Source: Candidatus Nomurabacteria bacterium RIFCSPLOWO2_01_FULL_39_18 (GTDB lineage Bacteria; Patescibacteriota; Minisyncoccia; Phycocordibacterales; UBA9973). Taken from it: DNA of 59,844 nt. Under the pieces are notes generated by a model. It was not told the origin of the DNA. It did not search any database and saw only the letters and a program-made list of their open reading frames with translations. The DNA is taken from contig MFUV01000009.1 in assembly GCA_001787005.1 (NCBI GenBank), forward strand, positions 1,929 to 61,772, read 5' to 3'. Position numbers and translations under genes: made by a program. Of this stretch, positions 1,322 to 54,684 are shown piece by piece. The first letter of the stretch is position 1, and each line of letters starts with the position of its first letter.

Positions 1322-1894
1322 TTTCCGCTTCGGTGGTTTGCGGATGATTCTCGGCGTACGACTTTTTCACGTACTTACCAGTAACCGAACTTCTATAGTT
1401 TTTACCCATAGAGTTTAATCGATTTTACATTTCGACAAATGGAGGATACAGGAGCGTGTCCTCACTATATACTATGCGGCCCCCTTTCAGACAGGTAAGG
1501 AAGTGTGCCTAAAAGGAAGTCGAATAATAAACATTTTATTAAATTTTATAGACAAAATAGAACTCGTCCTGAACGGTGGGATGTGGCGAGTAGACATCTC
1601 TTTCGAGACAGCTAACGCCCCATGCGGGACATTAGGTAGAAAATTTACCAAGCATCCCACTGTTCAAGACAGGTTGAACTCTGTCTACTTCTTTTACTTC
1701 GTTTTTCTACGACGAAGGTTAAACGTACTCTACATATAATTATACAGCACAGATAATATTTATAGCAAGTGGAAAACTCTTTTTTTTGTCGCAAGTTGTC
1801 CCGCCTTACAGGCGCAGTACACCTTTTGGACTTTTTCATTCACTTCGTTCTGAAAAATTCTCAAAAGCTCTTGCGCTTGGGTCCCTATCCCAAG

Positions 1895-1990
1895 CTCACC
1901 TCTTCCCATTCCGGACAGAGAAGTTAAGCCTTGTAGAGCTGATGATACTCTTCATGGGGAAAGTAAGCAGTCGCCAACACAAAGTATTTA
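1895..1990 (+). pseudogene. Partial second 5S rRNA copy (loop C to 3' end) with no helix I partner
   Basis: CACCTCTTCCCATTCCGGACAGAGAAGTTAAGCC...GCTGATGATACTCTTCATGGGGAAAGTAAGCAGTCGCCAACACAAAGTATTTA aligns with 5S positions ~753-850. The upstream sequence cannot pair with the 3' end. Confidence 0.6.
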
Positions 1991-2170: not shown

Positions 2171-3118
2171 TTAAAATTCAGAGAGAATTTTCTTTAAAAT
2201 TTCTAAGGCTTTTTCCGCGACCTCTTTATGACCTTCCTTTGTTCTGGGAAGTGCTACTGTTGTGGCACGTACAGCCAAATATTTAATAACTATAGGATCA
2301 TCCGCCAGTTTTCCATATCCCTTTTTGAAAAAATCTTTTTCTTTGTTATTTTGATATAGTAGACTTTTTGCAATATCATTCCTAGGATCGCCGGCCTGTA
2401 ACCGTCCCAGGTCGATTATTCCTGTGATTTTGCCGTGATTAATAAAGATATGTTCTTTTTTTAGATCTCTATGCAGAAGGGAAGCTTGCCCGAAATTCAA
2501 AGAATTTATTTCCTTTATAATTCTGTGCAGTTTCTCTGCTTCCTCGGGCGTTATTAAATTATTTTTTACCAAAGTGTTAACTACTTCATTGTAATTATTT
2601 TCTTGTGAGTGACAATATTCTTCATAACTTTTATATTTGCCCCTCAACTTTCCATCAACTACCTCAAGTGTACCAAACCCTTCTAGCTTAATTTCGTTTA
2701 TTCTCCTTAAAATTTCTCCCCAACTTTGATAGATCTTTTCCTTTTCTGTTTCGGATAGGTTTGTTTCTTCGAGGCTTACTCCTTCCGCAGCCTCTATTAT
2801 CATAGTTGGATGCCCAATTGTCGGTGGATTTTCTTGGTATGAAATAACTTGCGGTACGGGTATACTTTCCTCTCTAAGCATTTTATATCCCAAGCTCTCA
2901 ACTTCAAATGCCACCCCTTTTTTATTTATTCTGATGAATACCATTCTTCCTTCAGTAGTTTTTGCTCTGTATACCTCGCTTTGATAACCTTTGGCAGTTT
3001 TTTCTACTGCTGTTAAGACAATTCCAAAATCACTTTTTATAGCTTCTCCCAAACGAACGGGATCCATTTCTATTACCGTCAGTTTTGGAGTTGCTGGTTT
3101 TGGGTCCATATTTTTCAT
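2171..3118 (-). CDS. Phosphotransferase of the APH/choline-kinase (protein-kinase-like) family
   Basis: 315-aa ORF with a Brenner-type catalytic loop LLHRDLKKEHIF and the downstream GIIDLGRLQAGDPRNDI motif. Confidence 0.7.
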   Translation of the reverse strand: MKNMDPKPATPKLTVIEMDPVRLGEAIKSDFGIVLTAVEKTAKGYQSEVYRAKTTEGRMVFIRINKKGVAFEVESLGYKMLREESIPVPQVISYQENPPTIGHPTMIIEAAEGVSLEETNLSETEKEKIYQSWGEILRRINEIKLEGFGTLEVVDGKLRGKYKSYEEYCHSQENNYNEVVNTLVKNNLITPEEAEKLHRIIKEINSLNFGQASLLHRDLKKEHIFINHGKITGIIDLGRLQAGDPRNDIAKSLLYQNNKEKDFFKKGYGKLADDPIVIKYLAVRATTVALPRTKEGHKEVAEKALEILKKILSEF

Positions 3119-3134
3119 TATAACTTATTTTTAA

Positions 3135-3197
3135 CGAAAGTAGGTTATTTCTGAGAGTCTCAGACTCGATGAGCAGTCGCCAGAACAATGTATTTAA
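3135..3197 (+). repeat. Fourth 5S 3'-end fragment
   Basis: CGAAAGTAGGT-(28-nt hairpin insert)-CAGTCGCCAGAACAATGTATTTAAG. The last 24 nt are nearly identical to the trailer of the intact 5S (831-853). Confidence 0.55.
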
Positions 3198-3515
3198 GAA
3201 AACTAACTTTATAAATGAAGTGCTGTCGCCGTCCCGGTGGAACGGCGACGCACTTTTACTGGCATAGTGACGTTCCGTATTTTACGCCGAGGCGGAAGGC
3301 CAAGACGAGAAATATGAGGAAGAACACTATGTAAATCGCGATAAGGATTCTTCGGAGACCCTTACAGGTTTCCGTGATCCGACCGCAAACAGCCTCGATC
3401 TGTGTCACAGGTACCTCCGTGTTTATTGTACTATATATGTTAGAATTTTTTTTGCGTTGCCTGCCCACCCTTGGAGGGCTTGCTTTTGAAATCTGATAGT
3501 GTAGGATTGCTTTAT

Positions 3516-4061: not shown

Positions 4062-4844
4062 ATGACTTGGGCGTTCAAGAGGCAAGCTTTTTATATCAGT
4101 ATTCTTATTTTGGTTGTTTTGGTGTTCGGATTTATAATAATTTATCCAAGTTTAAACCAGCCGCCAACCTGCGCAGACAACGAGCAAAATGGAGATGAAA
4201 CAGGGGTGGACTGCGGAGGCTCCTGTCTCCGGGCGTGCATAGCGCAGATGGATGAAGTTTCTGTTCTCTGGTCTCGAGCTTTTAGAGTCGTGCCGGGGCG
4301 CTATAACGCAGTCGCTTATCTTATCAATCACAACCAAGACACAGCTATCAATAAAATAAGTTACCGATTTCGCTTTGCGGATGAAAATAATGTTTATATA
4401 GGCAAGCGCGACGGCACTACTTTTATCCCCCCAGCGGGCAAATTTACCATCTTTGAGCCGGCAATAGATGTCGGGCATTCTATTCCTGTATACGCGACTT
4501 TTGAATTTACGCAGGCGCCCGAATGGATCCAAGTGTCTAAAGAAAAAGTTAACCAAATAAAAATGTTGGTTTCAAACATAACTCTCACAGACGAACAAGT
4601 AAGCCCTAGACTCTCTGCTACCATCAAGAATGATTCACTCTTTATTGTTCCAGAAGTGGATGTGGTTGCGATTTTATATGATGCTTCCGGCAACGCGCTC
4701 GCCGCCAGCCGTACTTATCTGGATGTATTAAATGGGGAAGAGAGCAGAGATTTAAATTTTACATGGCCAGAGCCCATCTCTGGAGTAGTGACCCTCAAAG
4801 AGATAATTCCGATGTACAATATTTTTTCGGCTAAGTTAAAATGA
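4062..4844 (+). CDS. Membrane-anchored secreted protein of unknown function
   Basis: 260-aa ORF with an N-terminal TM helix and the Cys-rich CADNEQNGDETGVDCGGSC segment. Its stop overlaps the next start (ATGA). Confidence 0.6.
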   Translation: MTWAFKRQAFYISILILVVLVFGFIIIYPSLNQPPTCADNEQNGDETGVDCGGSCLRACIAQMDEVSVLWSRAFRVVPGRYNAVAYLINHNQDTAINKISYRFRFADENNVYIGKRDGTTFIPPAGKFTIFEPAIDVGHSIPVYATFEFTQAPEWIQVSKEKVNQIKMLVSNITLTDEQVSPRLSATIKNDSLFIVPEVDVVAILYDASGNALAASRTYLDVLNGEESRDLNFTWPEPISGVVTLKEIIPMYNIFSAKLK

Positions 4845-5971
4845 TAGAAAAAATTTCTAACAGGATAGATTGGATGCTGGTCTTTTTCATACTTCCCATA
4901 ATTGCCGCGGGGCTTGTGACAATGAAATCATTTACGGGAGGAGAAAATATTGGCGGATTTTTCGACAAACAGATTATCTGGGTGCTGGTGGGTTTCTCTG
5001 TTTTCTTCATTTTTTCTTTTATTGATTTTCGATTTTTAAAACGTACTTCCGTAATAGTGTTTTTATTTCTTTTGATTTCCTTAATTTTGCTTACACTTTT
5101 TATTTTGGGGCGTGTTTCTCACGGCGCAACGAGTTGGTTTGACTTCGGGTACTTTTCTTTTCAACCGGTTGATATGATGAAGCTGGTGCTGGTGCTCATT
5201 TTAGCAAAGTATTTTTCCCGGCGTCACGTGGAAATCAAGGACATCAAGCACATTTTTATATCATTTTTCTATGCTCTCATTCCTCTCATTTTGGTTTTGC
5301 TTCAGCCGGATTTCGGTTCGACGATGATCATATTTTTTATTTGGCTAGGCATGGTCTTTGTTTCTGGAATTTCCAAAACGCATTTATTTTTGGTTTTTTC
5401 TTCTGGTGTGGCAATCTTCGCCATGATGTGGTTTCTAGTTTTCGCGCCTTATCAAAAAGCCCGTATTTTTAATTTCATAAATCCATTAGCCGATATTCAT
5501 GGAACAGGTTACAATGCTTTCCAGTCAACTATTGCTGTCGGCTCAGGCGAGATTCTAGGCAAGGGTCTAGGCTTCGGTACGCAGTCGAGATTGAAATTTT
5601 TACCAGAGCCCCAGTCTGATTTTATTTTTGCCGCTTTTGCCGAAGAATGGGGCCTAGTCGGTAGTGTTTTGATCCTGTTACTTTATGGTCTTGTTATTTG
5701 GAGGATTCTTTATTTTTCTGCCCTGGGAGCGTCTAATTTCGAGATACTTTTCGGCATGGGCATTGCTATTTTTTTCATGAGTCATATATTCATAAATATT
5801 GGCATGAACCTGGGGCTCTTGCCCGTGACTGGCATTCCGCTTCCTTTTATGAGCTATGGCGGCTCGCATCTTTTGGCTGAGTTTGCCGGCTTGGGTATAT
5901 TAATGAGCATGCGTAGATACGCAAGGCCCGCGCATCGCGACGATATGAAAAATGAATTTCTGGGAGCATGA
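4841..5971 (+). CDS. SEDS-family peptidoglycan polymerase (FtsW/RodA)
   Basis: 376-aa polytopic ORF with SEDS hallmarks: QPDFGS, FAEEWGLVG, GLLPVTGIPLPFMSYGGS. Confidence 0.85.
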   Translation: MIEKISNRIDWMLVFFILPIIAAGLVTMKSFTGGENIGGFFDKQIIWVLVGFSVFFIFSFIDFRFLKRTSVIVFLFLLISLILLTLFILGRVSHGATSWFDFGYFSFQPVDMMKLVLVLILAKYFSRRHVEIKDIKHIFISFFYALIPLILVLLQPDFGSTMIIFFIWLGMVFVSGISKTHLFLVFSSGVAIFAMMWFLVFAPYQKARIFNFINPLADIHGTGYNAFQSTIAVGSGEILGKGLGFGTQSRLKFLPEPQSDFIFAAFAEEWGLVGSVLILLLYGLVIWRILYFSALGASNFEILFGMGIAIFFMSHIFINIGMNLGLLPVTGIPLPFMSYGGSHLLAEFAGLGILMSMRRYARPAHRDDMKNEFLGA

Positions 5972-6025
5972 CCTCACCCCTTCGCCCCTCTCCTTGTCAA
6001 GGAGAGGGGTTGGGGGAGAGGTGAA
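5970..6025. repeat. Family-1 nested palindrome, copy B (intergenic, SEDS/folD)
   Basis: GACCTCACCCC-TTCG-CCCCTCTCC-TTGTCAA-GGAGAGGGG-TT-GGGGGAGAGGTGAA. Confidence 0.85.
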
Positions 6026-6032
6026 TTATTAT

Positions 6033-6914
6033 ATGGAAATTATTGATGGGAGGAAATTAAATAAAGAAATTTTGGGAAAAGTGAAGGCGGAGGTCGTTTC
6101 GCTTTCCTTCCAGCCGATTTTTTGCGATGTCTTGGTGGGGAGCGACCCGGCAAGTGTTCAGTATGTGGGGATGAAAGCAAAAACGGCAGAAGCGGTGGGG
6201 ATGAAATTTCACAGTGCGAATTTCCCCGCATCCATAACCACGGAGGAGCTGATAAAAGAAATAAAAATTCTGAACAAAGTAGAAAATATGTGCGGAATAA
6301 TTATTCAGCTTCCATTGCCTCCTCATATTGAAAAACAATTAGCGCTTGACGCTCTTGACGTGCATCTTGATGTGGACTGCCTGGGTACGATAGCGAGTGA
6401 AAAATTTTATCAAGGTGAAACCTTGATAAAATATCCTACTGCGCTGGCTTGTATGGCGCTTCTTGATTCAATTAATTTAGACTTAACGCAGAAAAAAATA
6501 GTTGTTTTTGGGCAGGGGATGCTGGTGGGCAAGCCTGTGACAGCCCTGCTCAAATTTAGAAATTTGTCGCCAACAATTATTACTAGCAAAACTTCCGATA
6601 AAGAAAAAATTATTAAGCAAGCAGATGTTATAATTTCAGGCATAGGGAAGGGGAAATACATTACAGGTGATATGATTAAAGAAGGAGCAGTTTTGATTGA
6701 TGCTGGAACTTCTGAATCCGGAGCCGGCATCGTGGGCGATGTTAATTTGGAGTCTGTCAAAGATGTGGCAGGATTTGTTTCTCCCGTGCCCGGCGGCGTG
6801 GGGCCCGTAACTGTGGCCATGCTTCTCAAGAATGTGTTAACCGTGGCGAAGAACAAAGACCTCACCCCAGCCCCTCTCCTTGTAAAGGAGAGGGGAAGAG
6901 AGATTTTTAAATAA
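6033..6914 (+). CDS. folD: Bifunctional methylenetetrahydrofolate dehydrogenase/cyclohydrolase
   Basis: MEIIDGRKL..., GIIIQLPLP and VPGGVGPVTVAMLLKNV are present. The start was moved to the ATG at 6033 because the upstream 27 codons only translate the palindrome. The C-terminal tail DLTPAPLLVKERGREIFK is encoded by repeat copy C. Confidence 0.85.
   Translation: MEIIDGRKLNKEILGKVKAEVVSLSFQPIFCDVLVGSDPASVQYVGMKAKTAEAVGMKFHSANFPASITTEELIKEIKILNKVENMCGIIIQLPLPPHIEKQLALDALDVHLDVDCLGTIASEKFYQGETLIKYPTALACMALLDSINLDLTQKKIVVFGQGMLVGKPVTALLKFRNLSPTIITSKTSDKEKIIKQADVIISGIGKGKYITGDMIKEGAVLIDAGTSESGAGIVGDVNLESVKDVAGFVSPVPGGVGPVTVAMLLKNVLTVAKNKDLTPAPLLVKERGREIFK
6858..6895. repeat. Family-1 palindrome, copy C (left outer arm plus inner palindrome only)
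   Basis: GACCTCACCCC-AG-CCCCTCTCC-TTGTAAA-GGAGAGGGG. The right outer arm is absent. Confidence 0.8.
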
Positions 6915-6919
6915 AAATC

Positions 6920-7384
6920 ATGACAACTGACGAACTAAAAAAGCTAGTACAAGAAATTGTTGCTGAATCATATCGTTTAAATTTAGCTCATACTTCTGAG
7001 AGAAATGCACCAGTTAATTATGCATGTGTATTCACACATAGTTCAGATAAATATGAGGAAATTATTAATGTAGCTCAACAACTTGGACCAGTAGTGCAAG
7101 ACACTACAATGGGTTTAGTATTTCATATTTCTGCACTCCCAACTGTTGCTGGAATTCTTAACCTATTAAAAATACGTCGTTCTGATACAAAACGGACGGA
7201 ACGTGGAGATGCAGATTTTACTATCACTGACTATGAAAATTTCAAGAGGACATATCTTGGAAAATCTGGTTTTAGTATAATTAAACGACCCGAGATTGAA
7301 ATGATTGAGCTTTTAGACCCATCCTTCAATGTAATTGCTTATTATTCCAATCCTCCGCTCGCTACTGTATTAAAAATCAAATAA
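6920..7384 (+). CDS. Hypothetical protein
   Basis: 154-aa ORF with no motif I recognise. It lies between palindrome copies C and D. Confidence 0.5.
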   Translation: MTTDELKKLVQEIVAESYRLNLAHTSERNAPVNYACVFTHSSDKYEEIINVAQQLGPVVQDTTMGLVFHISALPTVAGILNLLKIRRSDTKRTERGDADFTITDYENFKRTYLGKSGFSIIKRPEIEMIELLDPSFNVIAYYSNPPLATVLKIK

Positions 7385-7396
7385 TATTATATAGTT

Positions 7397-7783
7397 ATGA
7401 CTTTATTAAAAAACAAATCCAAATTATTACCGAGACGGAGAGAATTAAGGAAAAATCAAACCAAGCACGAGGAAATTTTATGGGAGCATATAAGAAATCG
7501 AAAACTTGGATTTAAGTTTAAAAGGCAGTACAGTATAGGTGGTTATGTTTTAGATTTTTATTGTCCAAAAATCAAATTAGCCATCGAGTTAGACGGGAAC
7601 CAGCATTTAGAAAAAGAAAATTTTTTATACGATGAAGACAGAACTAATTTTTTAAAAGTTTTGGATTGTAAAGTTTTAAGGATTAGAAATTTAGAATTGG
7701 AAACAAATTTAAAAGAAGTTTTATTAAAAATTAAGCATTTTTCCCCTCTACTTGATAAGGAGAGGGGTTTAGGGGTGAGGTGA
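7397..7783 (+). CDS. DUF559 (Vsr-like / restriction-endonuclease-fold) domain protein
   Basis: ELRKNQTKHEEILWEHIRNRKLGFKFKRQYSIGGYVLDFYCPKIKLAIELDGNQH...DRTNFL...VLRIRN fits the DUF559 pattern. The C-terminus PLLDKERGLGVR is encoded by repeat copy D. Confidence 0.8.
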   Translation: MTLLKNKSKLLPRRRELRKNQTKHEEILWEHIRNRKLGFKFKRQYSIGGYVLDFYCPKIKLAIELDGNQHLEKENFLYDEDRTNFLKVLDCKVLRIRNLELETNLKEVLLKIKHFSPLLDKERGLGVR

Positions 7784-7785
7784 AT
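7743..7785. repeat. Family-1 palindrome, copy D (inner palindrome plus right outer arm only)
   Basis: CCCCTCTA-CTTGATAA-GGAGAGGGG-TTTA-GGGGTGAGGTGAA. The left outer arm is absent. Confidence 0.8.
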
Positions 7786-7787
7786 TT

Positions 7788-8318
7788 ATGAATAATCAAA
7801 TCTTTTTCTTTTTTTATAATTTAGCGCATCAGTCGAAATTTCTCGACCAAGTGGTTGTCTTTTTTGCTGTTTATTTTCCATACGTTGTGATTTTTTTGGC
7901 AGGAATATTTCTCTTGATGCATCATGAAGTTTTTAAAACGGAAAGCACTTTCCAAGTTTTTCTAGAAAAAAAGAAGGAAATATTTAGTTCTTTTTTAACC
8001 GGAATTTTAGCTTGGATCTTAACTCATGCTCTGAAATTTCTGTTTTCTTCTATGAGACCCTTTGAAGTACTTCCCCAAATACAGCCATTAATTTCGAAAA
8101 CAAGTTCCGCTTTTCCATCCGGGCATGCGGCTTTCTTTATGGCTTTAGCAATTTCTATTTTCTTTTTCCATAAAAAAGCTGGCTACTGGTTCATGCTTTT
8201 TGCACTTGTGATTGGCATTGCTCGCGTCATCGCCGGGGTACATTTTCCGATTGATATTCTAGGCGGTTTTATCTTCGGCGCCCTGATTGCTTATTTTGTG
8301 AAAAGTGTAAAATTATGA
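7788..8318 (+). CDS. PAP2-family lipid phosphatase (undecaprenyl-diphosphatase-like)
   Basis: The three PAP2 motifs are present: KFLFSSMRPF, PSGHAAF, ARVIAGVHFPIDILGG. Confidence 0.8.
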   Translation: MNNQIFFFFYNLAHQSKFLDQVVVFFAVYFPYVVIFLAGIFLLMHHEVFKTESTFQVFLEKKKEIFSSFLTGILAWILTHALKFLFSSMRPFEVLPQIQPLISKTSSAFPSGHAAFFMALAISIFFFHKKAGYWFMLFALVIGIARVIAGVHFPIDILGGFIFGALIAYFVKSVKL

Positions 8319-13260: not shown

Positions 13261-14172
13261 ATGGCTACGCTTTATACTCACCAAACTCAAAATATTACAA
13301 AAACTTGGATTTTAATGACCTTGTTTTTTGTCGTTATCATCGGGCTCGGCTGGTTTTTTAGTTTTTATTACGGCAATCCAGACATTCTATATTTTTTTGT
13401 TGCCTTCAGTATTCTGATGAATATTTTCTCATATTGGTTTTCAGATAAAATTGTTCTGACACTCGCAGGGGCAAAGCTAGCCAAGAGGGAAGAGTATTTT
13501 GATCTATATACCAGCGTTGAGAATCTTTCAATTACGGCTGGGCTACCGATGCCGAAAGTCTATGTAGTGGAAGATCCAGCGCCGAATGCTTTCGCCACAG
13601 GGCGGAACAAAGAGCATGCTGTCGTCTGCGTCACGACCGGGCTTCTTAAAATTTTAGAGAAAAATGAGCTAGAGGGCGTGATAGCCCACGAGCTCTCCCA
13701 TATCGGCAATCGTGATATGTTGCTTTCTACTGTTGTGGTGGTGCTGGTTGGTTTTGTTTCCATTATTGCAGATGTGTTCAGGCGCAATTTATTTTTTAGC
13801 AGGAGCAGAGACAGCGACAATAAAGCGCAAGGTATAATTTTGCTTATCGGAATAATTCTTTCAATTTTAGCGCCGATTTTTGCCATACTTATCCAGCTGG
13901 CCATCTCTCGCAAACGCGAATTTCTAGCAGATGCCTCCGGAGCATTGCTCATGCGCTATCCAGAAGGACTCTCTAATGCATTGCGTAAAATTTCTCAGAA
14001 TAGCAAACCGATGACTCGCCAATCCAATACTATTGCGCATCTATACATTGCCGACCCGAAAGGAACTGGAGTTGGCCTGCCTGCGCAGGCAGGCAAAAAA
14101 ATCAGCGGCCTCTTCGCTACCCATCCGCCGGTAGAAGAGAGAATCAAGGCTTTGGTTGGACAAAAGGAATGA
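13261..14172 (+). CDS. htpX: M48 zinc metalloprotease HtpX
   Basis: Has HELSHIGNRD (HExxH), four TM segments and a C-terminal LFATHPPVEERI. Confidence 0.9.
   Translation: MATLYTHQTQNITKTWILMTLFFVVIIGLGWFFSFYYGNPDILYFFVAFSILMNIFSYWFSDKIVLTLAGAKLAKREEYFDLYTSVENLSITAGLPMPKVYVVEDPAPNAFATGRNKEHAVVCVTTGLLKILEKNELEGVIAHELSHIGNRDMLLSTVVVVLVGFVSIIADVFRRNLFFSRSRDSDNKAQGIILLIGIILSILAPIFAILIQLAISRKREFLADASGALLMRYPEGLSNALRKISQNSKPMTRQSNTIAHLYIADPKGTGVGLPAQAGKKISGLFATHPPVEERIKALVGQKE
14075..14094. repeat. Family-2 palindrome (GCCTGCCTGCGCAGGCAGGC), in frame inside htpX
   Basis: A perfect 20-bp palindrome that encodes GLPAQAG. Related copies lie at 31152, 31216, 31619 and 48224. Confidence 0.8.
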
Positions 14173-16725: not shown

Positions 16726-17042
16726 TTGCGGGAGGCCGAATCGAACGGCCGTCTCAAGGTTATGCTTTACCACCATAGTTTTCACTACCCTTCAAATACT
16801 TTTAGGTTTGTGGTCTGGACTATACCATCTCCTTTTTTGAAAAACCAAAATTAAGGAGCTCATCGTCTAGTCTCTACACTTTTATTTCTGAAAAAATTCA
16901 GAAAATTTAGCTCGGAATTGTCTTTCTGTTTTCTCACAGAGAGGATTTCTCCGAATTTGATGAGTTCATACCTCAAAGTTTCCCAAGAGGGGGCCCATAG
17001 AATAACGCTGAGCCTTGCGAGATGCCTCTTCTCTATCCCGCT
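16726..17042 (-). tRNA. tRNA-Met(CAU), initiator-like, split by a 246-nt group I intron in the anticodon loop
   Basis: Exon 1 is AGCGGGA-TA-GAGA-AGAGGCA-TCTC-G-CAAGG-CT. Exon 2 is CATAA-CCTTG-AGAC-GGCCG-TTCGATT-CGGCC-TCCCGCA-A. The acceptor resembles E. coli tRNA-fMet (CGCGGGG/CCCCGCAA), with an unpaired 1:72 position and A73. Confidence 0.7.
16765..17010 (-). ncRNA. Group I intron (ORF-less) in the tRNA-Met anticodon loop, between U33 and C34
   Basis: The 5' exon ends in U and the intron ends in G. Exon GGCU can pair with intron GGCC (P1, with a U.G pair). GTAGAGACTAGAC and GGTATAGTCCAGAC match the R and S (P7) consensus elements. Confidence 0.7.
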
Positions 17043-22508: not shown

Positions 22509-22565
22509 ATGAATATAGGATTTACAAAAATGCATGGTTTGGGAAATGACAAAAATTATGCCTGA
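22509..22565 (+). pseudogene. 18-codon relic of the diaminopimelate epimerase (DapF) N-terminus
   Basis: Encodes MNIGFTKMHGLGNDKNYA*. FxKMHGLGNDF is the conserved DapF N-terminus. The relic overlaps the prfB start out of frame. Confidence 0.45.
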
Positions 22566-23490
22566 TGATACACACGATATAGATGAACAAATTAGGAAAC
22601 TAGAGGAAGGTATGGCACTTCCGGATTTTTGGAATGATAAGGTTAAGGCGCGGGCGGTACTCCGAGAACTGGCGGAGCTGAAGAATAAAAAGGAAGGCTT
22701 AGGAAAATATGATAAAGGCAATGCCATACTTACAATAATTTCTGGCGCGGGCGGAGACGATGCCGAAGATTTCTCCGCTATGCTTTTGTCGATGTATCTG
22801 AAATATGCTGACAGAAAAGGATGGGGCATTTCTTTTATTCATGAACACAAGAATGATCACGGGGGTTATAGGAATACCACAATAGAAATTTCTGACCCCA
22901 CCCTTCGCCCTCCCCTTGCCAAGGGGAGGGTTGGGGAGAGGTCGGGTCCCTACGGGACCTTGAAAAACGAATCCGGCGTGCACCGCCTGGTGCGCATTTC
23001 TCCCTTTAATGCCAAGAAGCTACGCCACACGTCCTTTTCTCTAGTTGAAGTTTTGCCGAAATTTTCAAAATTAGAAGAACGCGATGTGGCTATACCTGAA
23101 GCGGATTTAAAAATAGAATTTGCTCGCTCGTCAGGCCCGGGAGGTCAAAATGTGAATAAAAGAGAAACAGCTGTCAGGATTGTGCACGTGCCGACCGGCA
23201 TTTCTGCGCAAGCTTCCGGCGAACGCTCCCAAGAACAGAATCGTGAGTCTGCTCTGTCCATCTTGCGGGCGAAGATCTTCAAAAAAGCGCAGGATGAGAA
23301 AAAGAGCATTGAGGAAAGCTTGAAAATAAATAAAGGCACAGAAATAGAATGGGGGAGTCAGATACGTTCATACGTACTTCATCCTTATAAAATGGTCAAA
23401 GATCATAGAACTGGAGCGGAGACTTCGAACATTGATGCGGTTTTGGATGGTGATATAGACTTATTTGTGGATGCAGAAAAAGACTTGTAA
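22534..23490 (+). CDS. prfB: Peptide chain release factor 2 (short form, no recognisable +1 frameshift site)
   Basis: Has SPF (HRLVRISPFN), GGQ (SSGPGGQNVNK) and WGSQIRSYVLHPY. At 318 aa it has a much reduced domain 1. Alternative starts are at 22546 and 22558. Confidence 0.85.
   Translation: MVWEMTKIMPDDTHDIDEQIRKLEEGMALPDFWNDKVKARAVLRELAELKNKKEGLGKYDKGNAILTIISGAGGDDAEDFSAMLLSMYLKYADRKGWGISFIHEHKNDHGGYRNTTIEISDPTLRPPLAKGRVGERSGPYGTLKNESGVHRLVRISPFNAKKLRHTSFSLVEVLPKFSKLEERDVAIPEADLKIEFARSSGPGGQNVNKRETAVRIVHVPTGISAQASGERSQEQNRESALSILRAKIFKKAQDEKKSIEESLKINKGTEIEWGSQIRSYVLHPYKMVKDHRTGAETSNIDAVLDGDIDLFVDAEKDL
22894..22944. repeat. Family-1 palindrome, copy E, a 51-nt in-frame insertion in prfB
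   Basis: GACCCCACCC-TTCG-CCCTCCCC-TTGCCAA-GGGGAGGG-TT-GGGGAGAGGTCG encodes DPTLRPPLAKGRVGERS, between TIEIS and GPYGTLKNESGVHRLV. Confidence 0.85.
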
Positions 23491-31170: not shown

Positions 31171-31215
31171 GAACCAAGATTCATTGCTCCAGAGGCAATT
31201 TGCCTACCGTTAGAC

Positions 31216-31231
31216 CTGCCTGCGCAGGCAG
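31216..31231. repeat. Family-2 palindrome copy
   Basis: CTGCCTGCGCAGGCAG, a perfect 16-bp palindrome. Confidence 0.75.
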
Positions 31232-31263
31232 ACGATCTCCCAATATCTGATTCCTGCACAGAG

Positions 31264-31604: not shown

Positions 31605-31646
31605 GTCCTACCGTTAGACCTGCCTGCGCAGGCAGGCGATCTCCCA
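31605..31646 (-). pseudogene. tRNA-Gln 5' fragment (acceptor plus D arm) with a family-2 palindrome after nt 10
   Basis: TGGGAGA-TC-G[CCTGCCTGCGCAGGCAGG]TCT-AACGGTA-GGAC, followed directly by the GIY-YIG start codon. Confidence 0.55.
31619..31636. repeat. Family-2 palindrome copy
   Basis: CCTGCCTGCGCAGGCAGG, a perfect 18-bp palindrome. Confidence 0.8.
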
Positions 31647-31703
31647 ATTGCTTTACAATAATACAAAAAAAGCTTTTAATCAAATGTAAGTTTGACTAAA
31701 GTT

Positions 31704-35256: not shown

Positions 35257-35354
35257 TTCAATATCATTTTCAAAAGTCTGTGGTGGCGGATTTTCTTTTG
35301 AATAAGTTAGCTTGTTTTCATTCCCCTTCTGTTGTTATAATAGTAGTATTATAA

Positions 35355-35375
35355 GTCCCGACGGAAAGTCGGGAT
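35355..35375. repeat. Family-3 hairpin in the 5' leader of the DUF1761 gene
   Basis: GTCCCGAC-GGAAA-GTCGGGAT, starting 14 nt after the TGtTATAAT box at 35333-35341. Confidence 0.7.
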
Positions 35376-35423
35376 TCCAGCCCGGATAGTCGTTTGGCGT
35401 TGGAATTTAAATAAACAACAAAT

Positions 35424-37336: not shown

Positions 37337-37417
37337 ATTTTCCTTAAAGATGTTGTCCTGGGGTTTCGTGCTATAATACTACTTATAGCTTATTAGAGTT
37401 ATAATTAAATATTATTA

Positions 37418-37462
37418 GTCCCGACGTAAAGTCGGGATCCCGACCCTAAAAGGCGTCGGGAT
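37418..37462. repeat. Family-3 tandem hairpins in the 5' leader of the DUF4870 gene
   Basis: TCCCGAC-GTAAA-GTCGGGA followed by TCCCGAC-CCTAAAAGGC-GTCGGGA, downstream of the TGcTATAAT box at 37369-37377. Confidence 0.75.
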
Positions 37463-37479
37463 TAATAAATTAAAAATAT

Positions 37480-53844: not shown

Positions 53845-53925
53845 CCACCATCCCGTCCAAATTAATTTAGGCACTTCTACTTAATAAGGAGGAAAGGGGC
53901 TTAGACCCTGTACTCTTTATTAAAA

Positions 53926-53944
53926 ACGGAAGCCTTGCTTCCGT
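53926..53944. repeat. Family-4 hairpin (ACGGAAGC-CTT-GCTTCCGT), 5' flank of the tyrosine transposase gene
   Basis: The 23-nt string AAAAACGGAAGCCTTGCTTCCGT (53922-53944) is repeated identically at 54662-54684. Confidence 0.8.
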
Positions 53945-53970: not shown

Positions 53971-54663
53971 ATGTCTATAAGAAAAACCGATTTTATTAAA
54001 GGTGAGTATTATCATATATATAATAGAGGTAATAGTAAACAGAAAATTTTTCTAGATGATAAAGATCGAGAAAGATTTTTGAAACTCTTGTATCTTTGTA
54101 ACTCCAAACAAAGAATCGATTTTAGAGACGATATTGTAAAAAAGAAAATAAATGTTTGGGATTTTGAAAAAGGAGAATCAATAGTTAGTATTGGTGCCTG
54201 GGTTTTGATGCCAAATCATTTTCATTTATATCTTGCTCAAAAAACGGAAGCAAGGCTTCCGTCAGGTGGTGCGATTACTGATTTTCTACACAGGGTTCTG
54301 ACTGCTTACTCAAAGTATTTTAATGCTAAATATCACAGAACTGGTTCTTTATTTGAAGATAAGTTTAAATCTGTTCACATAAGTAAAGATAATCAGGCTA
54401 GATATCTATTTTCATATATACATCTTAATCCAGTAAAATTAATCAATTCAAAATGGAAAGAGCAGGGAATTAAAGAAAAAAATAAAACTCTAAACTTTTT
54501 GGATTCATATAAATGGAGTAGTTATTTTGATTATTTAGAAATTGTTCGACCAGAAAAAAGAATAATAAATAGGATTAATTTTTTAAACTGCTTCAAAACT
54601 AGGCGTGATTTTCAAAAAGAGATTTTCGATTGGATAAAAATCAAATCAGATAAAAACCAATAA
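53971..54663 (+). CDS. IS200/IS605-like Y1 (HUH) transposase of the REP-associated (RAYT) type
   Basis: Has YYHIYNRGN, the HUH motif PNHFHLYL, YFNAKYHRTGSLFEDKFKS and the catalytic Tyr context YIHLNPVK. Confidence 0.8.
   Translation: MSIRKTDFIKGEYYHIYNRGNSKQKIFLDDKDRERFLKLLYLCNSKQRIDFRDDIVKKKINVWDFEKGESIVSIGAWVLMPNHFHLYLAQKTEARLPSGGAITDFLHRVLTAYSKYFNAKYHRTGSLFEDKFKSVHISKDNQARYLFSYIHLNPVKLINSKWKEQGIKEKNKTLNFLDSYKWSSYFDYLEIVRPEKRIINRINFLNCFKTRRDFQKEIFDWIKIKSDKNQ
54244..54262. repeat. Family-4 hairpin, inverted copy inside the transposase ORF
   Basis: ACGGAAGC-AAG-GCTTCCGT is the exact reverse complement of the flanking hairpins. It encodes part of KTEARLPSG. Confidence 0.8.
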
Positions 54664-54665
54664 AA

Positions 54666-54684
54666 ACGGAAGCCTTGCTTCCGT
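54666..54684. repeat. Family-4 hairpin, 3' flank of the transposase gene
   Basis: Identical to 53926-53944 and begins 3 nt after the stop codon. Confidence 0.8.

Follow-up and report, generated by a model that had tools for sequence, protein, structure and literature searches.

A DUF559 nuclease gene between inverted triplex-motif repeats in a Nomurabacteria genome: a candidate resident partner of BoxC-type palindromes

Is a nuclease gene that lies between two palindromic repeats a transposon, or a long-term companion of these repeats? The question is raised by positions 6858-7785 of a 59.8-kb stretch of DNA (59,844 nucleotides of contig MFUV01000009.1, hereafter the window) from Candidatus Nomurabacteria bacterium RIFCSPLOWO2_01_FULL_39_18. 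Here an open reading frame (ORF) of 154 codons, ORF154, and a gene for a DUF559 endonuclease are bracketed by two partial copies, C and D, of a palindrome that is present in three further, full copies (A, B and E) in the same window. An earlier note made from the sequence had described these copies, their arms and their coordinates, all of which were confirmed by direct reading and a pattern search. It had also proposed that C and D are truncated copies acting as terminal repeats around a cargo, and that the whole is the autonomous parent of a family of miniature inverted-repeat transposable elements (MITEs). We arrived at a different reading, to which we assign a probability of about one half: positions 6858-7785 would be a resident module of DUF559 and a triplex-motif repeat, in which DUF559 is a family-specific partner of the repeat, comparable to the REP-associated tyrosine transposases (RAYTs), the partners of REP/REPIN repeats (reviewed in PMC3733652). 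The module looks like a resident pair of the RAYT/REPIN kind rather than an active autonomous transposon.

The evidence for this partnership comes from 126 DUF559 loci, which were taken from a collection with one genome per species and from metagenomes. These loci span the Candidate Phyla Radiation (CPR), Pseudomonadota (Pseudomonas), Bacteroidota (Pontibacter), Cyanobacteriota, Chloroflexota, Ignavibacteriota, Cloacimonadota, one Bathyarchaeia bin and others; a metagenome scan for close relatives of the window yielded three useful loci (L083-L085), the others being distant. Hairpins were scored when they were perfect and consisted of a C-rich 5' arm and its G-rich complement. Their density reaches 4.5 per kb within the 160 nt that precede the DUF559 start and 4.6-5.7 per kb within the 100 nt that follow the end of the domain, compared to 0.08-0.17 per kb far from DUF559 and 0 within the gene. 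On each side, 76 of the 126 DUF559 ends (~60%) have a hairpin, and the corresponding values for the ends of other ORFs are 13/187 and 12/187 (6-7%; p ~1e-25). Hairpins are present on both sides in 60 loci. Flanking of DUF559 genes by such repeats, which the earlier note had put forward as a check, is thus found on both sides and across phyla, but it is not universal (see below).

The repeats also leave their mark on the proteins. The earlier note had linked DUF559 proteins to C-terminal tails of the 'PLS-KERG' type, and this link is real and specific to the family: repeat-derived tails were found in 48 of 106 DUF559 homologues, in the forms …PSPL, …FTPLLDKERGRGEVNL and …PSPLQGEG…, in contrast to 1 of 120 ORF154 homologues (Fisher p = 4e-18) and ~6 of 120 FolD homologues.

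The orientation of the flanking units was determined with a mirror third-arm test (null pass rate 2%), which replaced a flank-complementarity test that had left 36/60 loci unclassified. According to the third-arm test, 35 flanking pairs are inverted, 26 of them with the arms inward and 9 with the arms outward as in the window, and 5 are direct. The stems on the two sides of one gene are identical in 57% of cases vs 5% between loci, and solo hairpins distant from the gene match the local DUF559-flanking stems to the same extent (57% vs 5% between loci). Neighbouring RAYT-like genes carry hairpins quite unlike the DUF559 type. The association is family-wide, and these statistics support a nuclease-plus-hairpin system like RAYT/REP, which the earlier note had envisaged. 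A cargo, on the other hand, was rejected as a general feature, since an ORF between the left unit and DUF559 was found in the window's own clade only.

How are the units in the window built? A search with CCCTCTCCTTGTNAAGGAGAGGG, allowing up to 3 mismatches, gave matches at 36-58, 5986-6008, 6872-6894, 7744-7766 and 22908-22930 (shuffled sequences expect 0.00), and a repeat search placed the five copies in one family, D1, and detected inverted repeats between copies. All five have stems of 10-11 bp and a 3-nt loop, that is, a C-rich block, the loop and the complementary G-rich block. Copies A, B and E consist of a pyrimidine left arm, the inner hairpin and a purine right arm and fold into long hairpins (z = -5.8, -6.1 and -3.2, respectively); for the partial copies C and D the computed fold is the inner hairpin alone. 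Direct reading showed that the right arm is absent after the hairpin of copy C, and that the left arm is absent before the hairpin of copy D, the stem of which has one mismatch. The reverse complement of the left arm of copy C equals the right arm of copy D at 10/11 bases. The outer arms of C and D are at the same time the arms of the solo copies A, B and E, i.e., terminal inverted repeats common to the short and the long elements.

Such three-block units belong to a described family. BoxC elements, later named PIT elements and TMECO, are found in E. coli and more than 260 proteobacterial genomes (PMC4666352, Holder et al. 2015). The TMECO pattern, CCCTCNCCC N3-6 GGGNGAGGG N3 GGGNGAGGG, comprises a hairpin and a mirror-symmetric third purine block, and forms an intrastrand triplex in vitro (PMC4666352). 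In the window, copies A, B, C and E reach third-arm scores of 0.8-1.0; both arms of copy B pass the test, and copy C scores 0.91 on its left and 0.64 on its right side. For copy D, comparison by hand of the arm with the mirror of the purine stem gave 10/11 triads (G*G, A*A, T*A). Copies C and D are three-block units on opposite strands, C on the minus and D on the plus strand. They are complete triplex-motif units, the normal form in the BoxC/PIT/TMECO family, and not the truncated 'three-quarter copies' of the earlier note. The window blocks, CCCCTCTCC(TT) / (AA)GGAGAGGGG / GGGGTGAGG, have the order and symmetry of TMECO but differ at several positions and depart from the exact consensus; the window repeat is best classified as a variant rather than TMECO proper.

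Both flanking units reach into genes (Table 1). Copy C lies within the 3' end of the folD ORF, reading ...KNKDLTPAPLLVKERGREIFK*, and provides FolD with a repeat-derived tail of 18-19 residues after ...VAKNK as well as with a new stop. Copy D supplies the final 13 codons and the stop of the DUF559 gene, and its purine arm ends 3 nt before the ATG of the PAP2 gene (7788), in a Shine-Dalgarno-like position. The region from ftsW to PAP2 is gene-dense and low in GC. GC content was discarded as evidence: the AT content of the cassette exceeds that of folD and ftsW, but PAP2 shares this property, which makes the measure uninformative. Rfam searches at two thresholds found no family for the palindromic element, only chance matches to microRNA precursors on copy A.

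Table 1. Palindrome copies and genes of the DUF559 locus in the window
Feature	Positions	Strand	Description
Copy A	22-80	no strand	both arms; within 23S rRNA gene
ftsW/rodA	4841-5971
Copy B	5970-6025	no strand	both arms; ftsW-folD spacer
folD	6033-6914
Copy C	6858-6895	no strand	left pyrimidine arm GACCTCACCCC (6858-6868), AG, hairpin CCCCTCTCCTTGTAAAGGAGAGGGG (6871-6895)
ORF154	6920-7384	+	lineage-specific passenger between left unit and DUF559; vicinal oxygen chelate (VOC; glyoxalase/YecM-like) fold
DUF559 gene	7397-7783	+	128 aa, Vsr-fold PD-(D/E)XK nuclease domain
Copy D	7743-7785	no strand	hairpin CCCCTCTACTTGATAAGGAGAGGGG (7743-7767), TTTA, right purine arm GGGGTGAGGTGAA (7772-7784)
PAP2 phosphatase	7788-8318
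Copy E	22894-22944	no strand	diverged 51-nt element, both arms; in prfB ORF 22534-23490

Has the module moved? The history of the site was followed in relatives, using FolD homologues for unbiased access to the folD-PAP2 site. The order ftsW-folD-(left arm + hairpin)-…-DUF559-(hairpin + right arm)-PAP2 is present in the window and in loci L001, L002, L083, L084 and L085 (six loci from five distinct genomes, L001 being a sister strain). Copy C recurs at its site in L001, L002, L083 and L084, and L085 has an imperfect version of it; copy D is found at the same site in all five. Independent insertion of the two partial copies, an alternative raised by the earlier note, is not borne out, as no relative among the loci compared has just one of them.

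An empty site in a sister genome, also named as a check, was found in the closest relative, L127 (FtsW 94% and PAP2 84% identical to the window). It reads folD-TAA-ttt-ATG-PAP2 and contains no repeat, and the boundaries of the indel in comparison to the window are the outer arms at 6858/7785. The idea of C and D as terminal repeats around a cargo is supported with respect to the bracket, which is the unit that is present or absent, and not with respect to ORF154, which is no part of the conserved unit. L083 and L085 have no ORF between the left unit and DUF559, and in L002 and L084 the slot contains unrelated ORFs of 127 aa (ORF127, weakly 2H-phosphoesterase-like) and 123 aa (ORF123, weakly cupin-like), respectively. 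No homologues of ORF154, ORF127 or ORF123 were found in other DUF559 loci.

In L085, the DUF559 gene (3001-3345) has an in-frame stop at codon 87 (…TEYL*ILG…) and is a pseudogene; the flanking hairpins are degraded too, which suggests that gene and repeats are decaying in parallel. In L129 and L132, the folD-PAP2 slot contains a Y1-transposase (RAYT/IS200-like) gene with different flanking hairpins of its own. In a tree of FtsW and FolD, the DUF559-bearing genomes are basal and L127 is located beside the window. From this placement the DUF559 unit is most simply ancestral at the folD-PAP2 site, with subsequent loss or replacement in some lines. In this clade DUF559 has the behaviour of a long-standing, single-copy resident, with occasional loss (L127) or decay (L085). 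An autonomous MITE parent is more than these data support: the gene is single-copy in the window and syntenic in a family-level clade, with one pseudogene and one loss, and no target-site duplication was seen.

In the clade, presence of the gene and presence of the repeat seem to go together. Family-1 hairpins, i.e., those of the window type, number 1-4 per DUF559 locus vs 0 in four DUF559-less loci (~24 kb), which is a small sample. In E. coli, repeat copy number tracks the DUF559 gene only loosely, and the signal is confounded by phylogeny. DUF559 identity within the clade is 70-78% and uncorrelated with host identity (59-73%), and codon identity at conserved residues is 58-68% for DUF559 vs 35-59% for the flanking genes. 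This pattern may reflect exchange between lineages or just AT-biased codon use. As a separate observation, L002 contains a pair resembling a diversity-generating retroelement (bAvd accessory protein and reverse transcriptase; 6192-7611) 1.3 kb downstream of PAP2, which is not in the equivalent region of the window.

What kind of proteins does the module encode? The window DUF559 matches PF04480 (E = 2.3e-30; 105 bits vs a cut-off of 20.6) and, partially, the YcjD equivalog NF007294. All residues invariant in the family are kept, including D53, E64, D66, H70, D79 and R82 (alignment A1, 41 relatives). Comparison of the DUF559 alignment profile with the Protein Data Bank identified 3HRL, the structure of a Neisseria DUF559 protein (E = 7e-31), 3R3P, a 'mobile intron protein' (4.7e-5), and, weakly, PvuRts1I; 3R3P is the catalytic domain of the homing endonuclease I-Bth0305I. 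Phage homing-endonuclease families in PHROGs match the window DUF559 weakly. The protein has no match to Y1_Tnp and hence no HUH/Y1 transposase domain. A role of DUF559 in a defence system was rejected, as PADLOC returned weak partial matches only (to the nuclease domains of a methyl-directed restriction enzyme and of DpdF); a search of the neighbourhood in the window found neither a partner methylase nor a defence-island context. Carriage by plasmids or phages was likewise rejected: only 33 of 72,556 plasmid records contain a relative, and several of these are mislabelled chromosomes.

ORF154 has no match in Pfam, NCBIfam, PADLOC or PHROGs. Its 177 homologues belong to CPR bacteria and DPANN archaea, and the best 120 of these are ~52-75% identical, except one sister-strain copy with 97%. 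The AlphaFold model (pLDDT 97) was compared with known structures using Foldseek; the best match is 1K4N (E. coli EC4020, YecM; TM 0.71), and glyoxalase-family structures come next. Judging by this predicted fold, ORF154 looks like an ordinary small enzyme rather than a mobility protein.

The pairing can be followed in E. coli, Neisseria and cyanobacteria. The E. coli DUF559 gene, ycjD, is located between sapF and fabI (L134/L135), with a left-arm-plus-hairpin unit directly 3' and two more units within 250 bp, all of the BoxC type. Upstream of ycjD a different palindrome is found, with an 18-bp stem and the ends CACCTCA…TGAGGTG. According to a recent paper, this E. coli site is taken by either ycjD or the eefRABCD operon (PMC12817139). 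A 51-nt unit from the ycjD locus was detected in 5426/5426 complete E. coli genomes (median 16 places, maximum 29); using a chimeric query of ycjD and the unit, ycjD was found to be present in 3377 and absent from 2049 of these genomes. In a sample drawn evenly from the ranking, ycjD-positive genomes have 10-25 repeat places. Among the ycjD-negative genomes, some (O157:H7 and others) have 9-14 and the rest (ST131 and others) 1-4. This is a strong difference (Mann-Whitney p = 9e-10), and the pattern follows phylogroups.

The N. gonorrhoeae gene that matches 3HRL (L137) has three-block units on both sides. By eye, its flanks form a direct repeat of ~80-100 nt, each with a unit CTCTCTCCC TGT GGGAGAGAG CTA GAGAGAGGG. 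On a plasmid of Synechocystis sp. B12 (L140 1228-3752), a DUF1156 gene is split by the arrangement (left arm + hairpin)-DUF559-(hairpin + right arm). At the corresponding position, the orthologue of this gene on pAQ6 of PCC 7002 (L141 1286-4450) contains ~70 repeat-derived residues (…PQPSPPAPMNGGER…SPQPSPPTPKFGG…); a separate DUF559 gene is located just upstream of it.

Two of the solo copies in the window, A and E, are insertions, as judged from comparison with uninterrupted homologues. Copy A splits conserved 23S rRNA sequence; motif anchoring showed that its flanks match annotated 23S rRNA, which is interrupted between GCTGGGTTCAGAACGTCGTGA and GACAGTTCGG. The junctions are ...CGU(U/C)(U/G)(A/U)GA on the left and GACAGUU on the right, ~60 nt upstream of a group I intron, and the copy extends a 23S rRNA helix. 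Copy E is an in-frame insertion in the release factor 2 (RF2) gene, which adds 17 codons and encodes DPTLRPPLAKGRVGERS; an RF2 alignment shows ~15 residues extra in comparison to solved RF2 structures, exactly at copy E. The left arm of copy B overlaps the ftsW stop, and its right purine arm ends 7 nt before the folD ATG (6033), resembling a ribosome-binding site. At this site L002 and L083 have kept the copy, and other palindromes or nothing are found in L084, L127, L129, L130 and L132. The ftsW-folD spacers of L084, L127 and L130 contain palindromes that differ from those of the window, and the occurrence of differing palindromes in one spacer suggests a rapid turnover of such elements.

The window contains further repeats and RNA features. 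Rfam assigns positions 1-642 to part of a 23S rRNA gene, made up of the region of copy A (22-80), the group I intron (143-354) and the last segment of the large subunit rRNA (399-642). A second group I intron is located at 16791-17020 (-). Two 5S rRNA matches at 731-837 and 1875-1979 (+), 1.1 kb apart, lie in a 103-nt direct repeat (755-857 / 1897-1999). Other palindrome families, CCTGCCTGCGCAGGCAGG and AGTCCCGACGGAAAGTCGGGAT with a second hairpin, are found at 31203-31244, 31607-31648 and 14068-14093, and at 35347-35411 and 37410-37474. A Y1-transposase gene at 53971-54654 (+) (PF01797, E = 4e-4) is 50-55% identical to the genes of L129 and L132, and is flanked by inverted ACGGAAGCCTTGCTTCCGT copies with hairpins at 53921-53944 and 54661-54684. 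This gene and its hairpins look like a classical REP/RAYT arrangement in the same genome as the DUF559 module.

How could gene and repeat be connected? We infer that the protein acts on the repeat, and would propose the following steps. The nuclease would recognise the folded unit, as a hairpin, a cruciform or an intrastrand triplex, and introduce a nick or a break in the unit or next to it. Repair of the break, or copying, would spread and maintain the short units and make the neighbouring DNA recombinogenic, and recombination between the hairpins of C and D would leave exactly the arm-hairpin-arm form of the solo copies. Such a mechanism would explain the solo copies in tolerant sites of essential genes, the three unrelated ORFs captured between the left unit and DUF559, the clean indel bounded by the outer arms and the known instability of BoxC/TMECO loci. 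More tentatively, and with somewhat less confidence than we have in the module itself, DUF559 (YcjD in E. coli, NGO0050 in Neisseria) could be the missing partner nuclease of BoxC/PIT/triplex-motif repeats across Bacteria. The two would then form a second, mechanistically unrelated symbiosis like that of RAYT and REPIN, driving the spread, the maintenance and the local instability of the repeats.

Several points weigh against such a partnership. The evidence that joins DUF559 to the repeat is positional or statistical throughout, and under strict criteria 34/126 loci have no hairpin. A single-domain nuclease of 115 residues is without obvious means of strand transfer. The gene is present once in the window and syntenic across the clade, which leaves recent movement of the gene unsupported, and none of the four junction pairs of the window copies shows a target-site duplication. 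The purine arms resemble ribosome-binding sites and are often located 10-25 nt before a start codon, so a role at the RNA level is possible. In E. coli, O157:H7 and other ycjD-negative genomes retain 9-14 copies, and the ycjD-positive genomes H47 and H48 of phylogroup-D type (14 and 10 places; their longer ycjD locus is possibly an ST69/ST182-type allele) are no richer than ycjD-negative ones; the correlation of copy number with ycjD is only suggestive there and may be purely phylogenetic.

Alternatively, DUF559 could be a free-standing selfish gene of the homing type that cuts the full element and is copied into the break from an allele already occupied, leaving two non-cleavable three-quarter copies, with the repeats spreading by other means and serving as landing sites. 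We regard this as unlikely. The relationship of its profile to 3R3P and the PHROGs homing-endonuclease families would fit, as would the window arrangement, which resembles one full element opened around a gene, and the presence or absence of DUF559 at one conserved site among close relatives. The DUF1156 insertion, too, is located where the orthologue carries repeat-derived in-frame sequence, and the missing correlation of DUF559 with host identity, together with a codon identity above that of the flanks, hints at exchange, although the excess in codon identity may stem from AT-biased usage in a gene with ~29% GC. However, the window has one DUF559 despite at least three intact solo targets, both flanking units have an intact hairpin, and the arms-inward orientation that is commonest elsewhere (26 vs 9) is not predicted by a simple split-target model. 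Moreover, DUF559 is without the extra DNA-binding domains of I-Bth0305I.

The genome-specific sequence that flanking and solo copies have in common, and their inverted orientation, would also be left unexplained if DUF559 were a host nuclease with no role in mobility. In that case it would serve repair or housekeeping on hairpin or triplex DNA, for example at stalled forks, or a restriction-like defence, and the units would be operator or autoregulatory sites or mere accumulations. This is quite unlikely in our opinion, as the gene is dispensable (lost in L127, a pseudogene in L085 and missing from the 2049 E. coli genomes mentioned above) and neither a partner methylase nor a defence-island context is present in the window. 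It would agree with the Vsr fold, with a syntenic, single-copy gene with conserved catalytic residues, with the weak PADLOC matches to restriction and DpdF nuclease domains, and with the block of DNA polymerase by PIT elements in vitro (PMC4666352); direct reading also shows that the arms could pair across the mRNA, masking the ribosome-binding site. Finally, gene and repeat might have no functional link at all, the GC-rich palindromes being terminator or ribosome-binding-site cassettes at gene boundaries of variable regions in which DUF559 is frequent. The elements do lie at gene boundaries, where they supply stops and Shine-Dalgarno-like sequences, palindrome families swap in the ftsW-folD spacer of relatives, and TMECO loci are variable regions. 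Against this stand the ~nine-fold enrichment per gene end over other ORFs of the same loci, the near absence of repeat-derived tails from ORF154 and FolD homologues, and the same hairpin type beside DUF559 from CPR to Pseudomonas and Neisseria, with different hairpins at RAYT-like neighbours. In addition, promoter or terminator activity of PIT elements was not found in the tests cited by PMC4666352. We consider a coincidence of this kind improbable.

The resident partnership of DUF559 and repeat would matter for several reasons. DUF559 nucleases form a very large family for which a structure has been solved and no role is known, and a specific pairing across phyla offers a candidate partner to each of two orphans, DUF559 and BoxC/PIT/TMECO. 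The pairing makes the question testable in E. coli K-12, which has ycjD, a gene lacking in many natural E. coli genomes, and in Neisseria, for which a crystal structure exists. If true, nuclease-repeat partnerships of the REPIN-RAYT type would have evolved repeatedly, each time from unrelated enzymes. The partnership would also account for the repeat-derived tails and in-frame insertions that make genes harder to call in CPR and other genomes.

Which known systems does the module resemble? Homing endonucleases of the I-Bth0305I type, from phage group I introns (3R3P), have a related catalytic domain and are likewise present or absent at a conserved site. At the folD-PAP2 site, the window represents the occupied and L127 the empty allele, the latter without any repeat. 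In contrast to these enzymes, DUF559 has no intron or intein context and no extra DNA-binding domain, and it lies between repeats and does not interrupt a unique, conserved target. In-frame insertion into genes is a feature of Rickettsia palindromic elements (RPE) and other MITE-like repeats, and the window solos A and E are comparable in being short palindromes tolerated within essential genes. RPE differ in that they have no sequence relationship to the window repeats, and, to our knowledge, a dedicated nuclease gene has not been suggested for them.

The closest likeness on the side of the repeat is to BoxC/PIT/TMECO. Both have a C-rich arm, a loop of 3-6 nt, a complementary G-rich arm, a short loop and a mirror G-rich arm, and both are dispersed and multi-copy, sometimes form inverted pairs and occupy variable loci. 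There are 23 TMECOs in K-12 and 3610 in 262 proteobacterial genomes, none of them in Salmonella; strain 55989 has 29 and IHE3034 has 1, and TMECO loci are far more rearranged than control loci (PMC4666352). The median of 16 copies of the ycjD-adjacent element fits the 23 TMECOs of K-12, and the strain counts agree with those of the paper. Enterobacter asburiae/cloacae have more than 300 motifs and Klebsiella aerogenes fewer than 30. The two differ in that the window variant (CCCCTCTCCTT / AAGGAGAGGGG / GGGGTGAGG) does not exactly match CCCTCNCCC...GGGNGAGGG, and in that the full copies of the window carry the third block on both sides. BoxC/PIT/TMECO elements were reported to be always intergenic, whereas copies A (23S rRNA) and E (prfB) lie in genes. 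Although these elements have been known in E. coli since the 1990s, neither a function nor a mobilising activity was found, and remnants of transposases or integrases were never found near TMECO by the authors (PMC4666352). That paper mentions neither ycjD nor any endonuclease, and a search of the literature, which left subscription-only papers outside, found no work linking DUF559 (COG2852, ycjD) to BoxC/TMECO or palindromic repeats. As far as the searchable literature goes, both the repeats and the proteins have been described as families, and the association with DUF559 is the new element.

On the side of the gene, the closest likeness is to RAYT and REPIN. The two systems differ in enzyme and repeat: DUF559 is a Vsr-fold PD-(D/E)XK nuclease and not a HUH/Y1 transposase, and its repeat is a triplex-capable pyrimidine/purine mirror, whereas REP has a GTAG or CGTC tag. 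They are alike in having a single-copy gene between two inverted copies of a short palindrome, further copies of which are scattered over the genome, a genome-specific repeat sequence, and a long residence of the gene with occasional loss. In L129 and L132, Y1-transposase genes with their hairpins fill the very folD-PAP2 slot that DUF559 occupies in the window.

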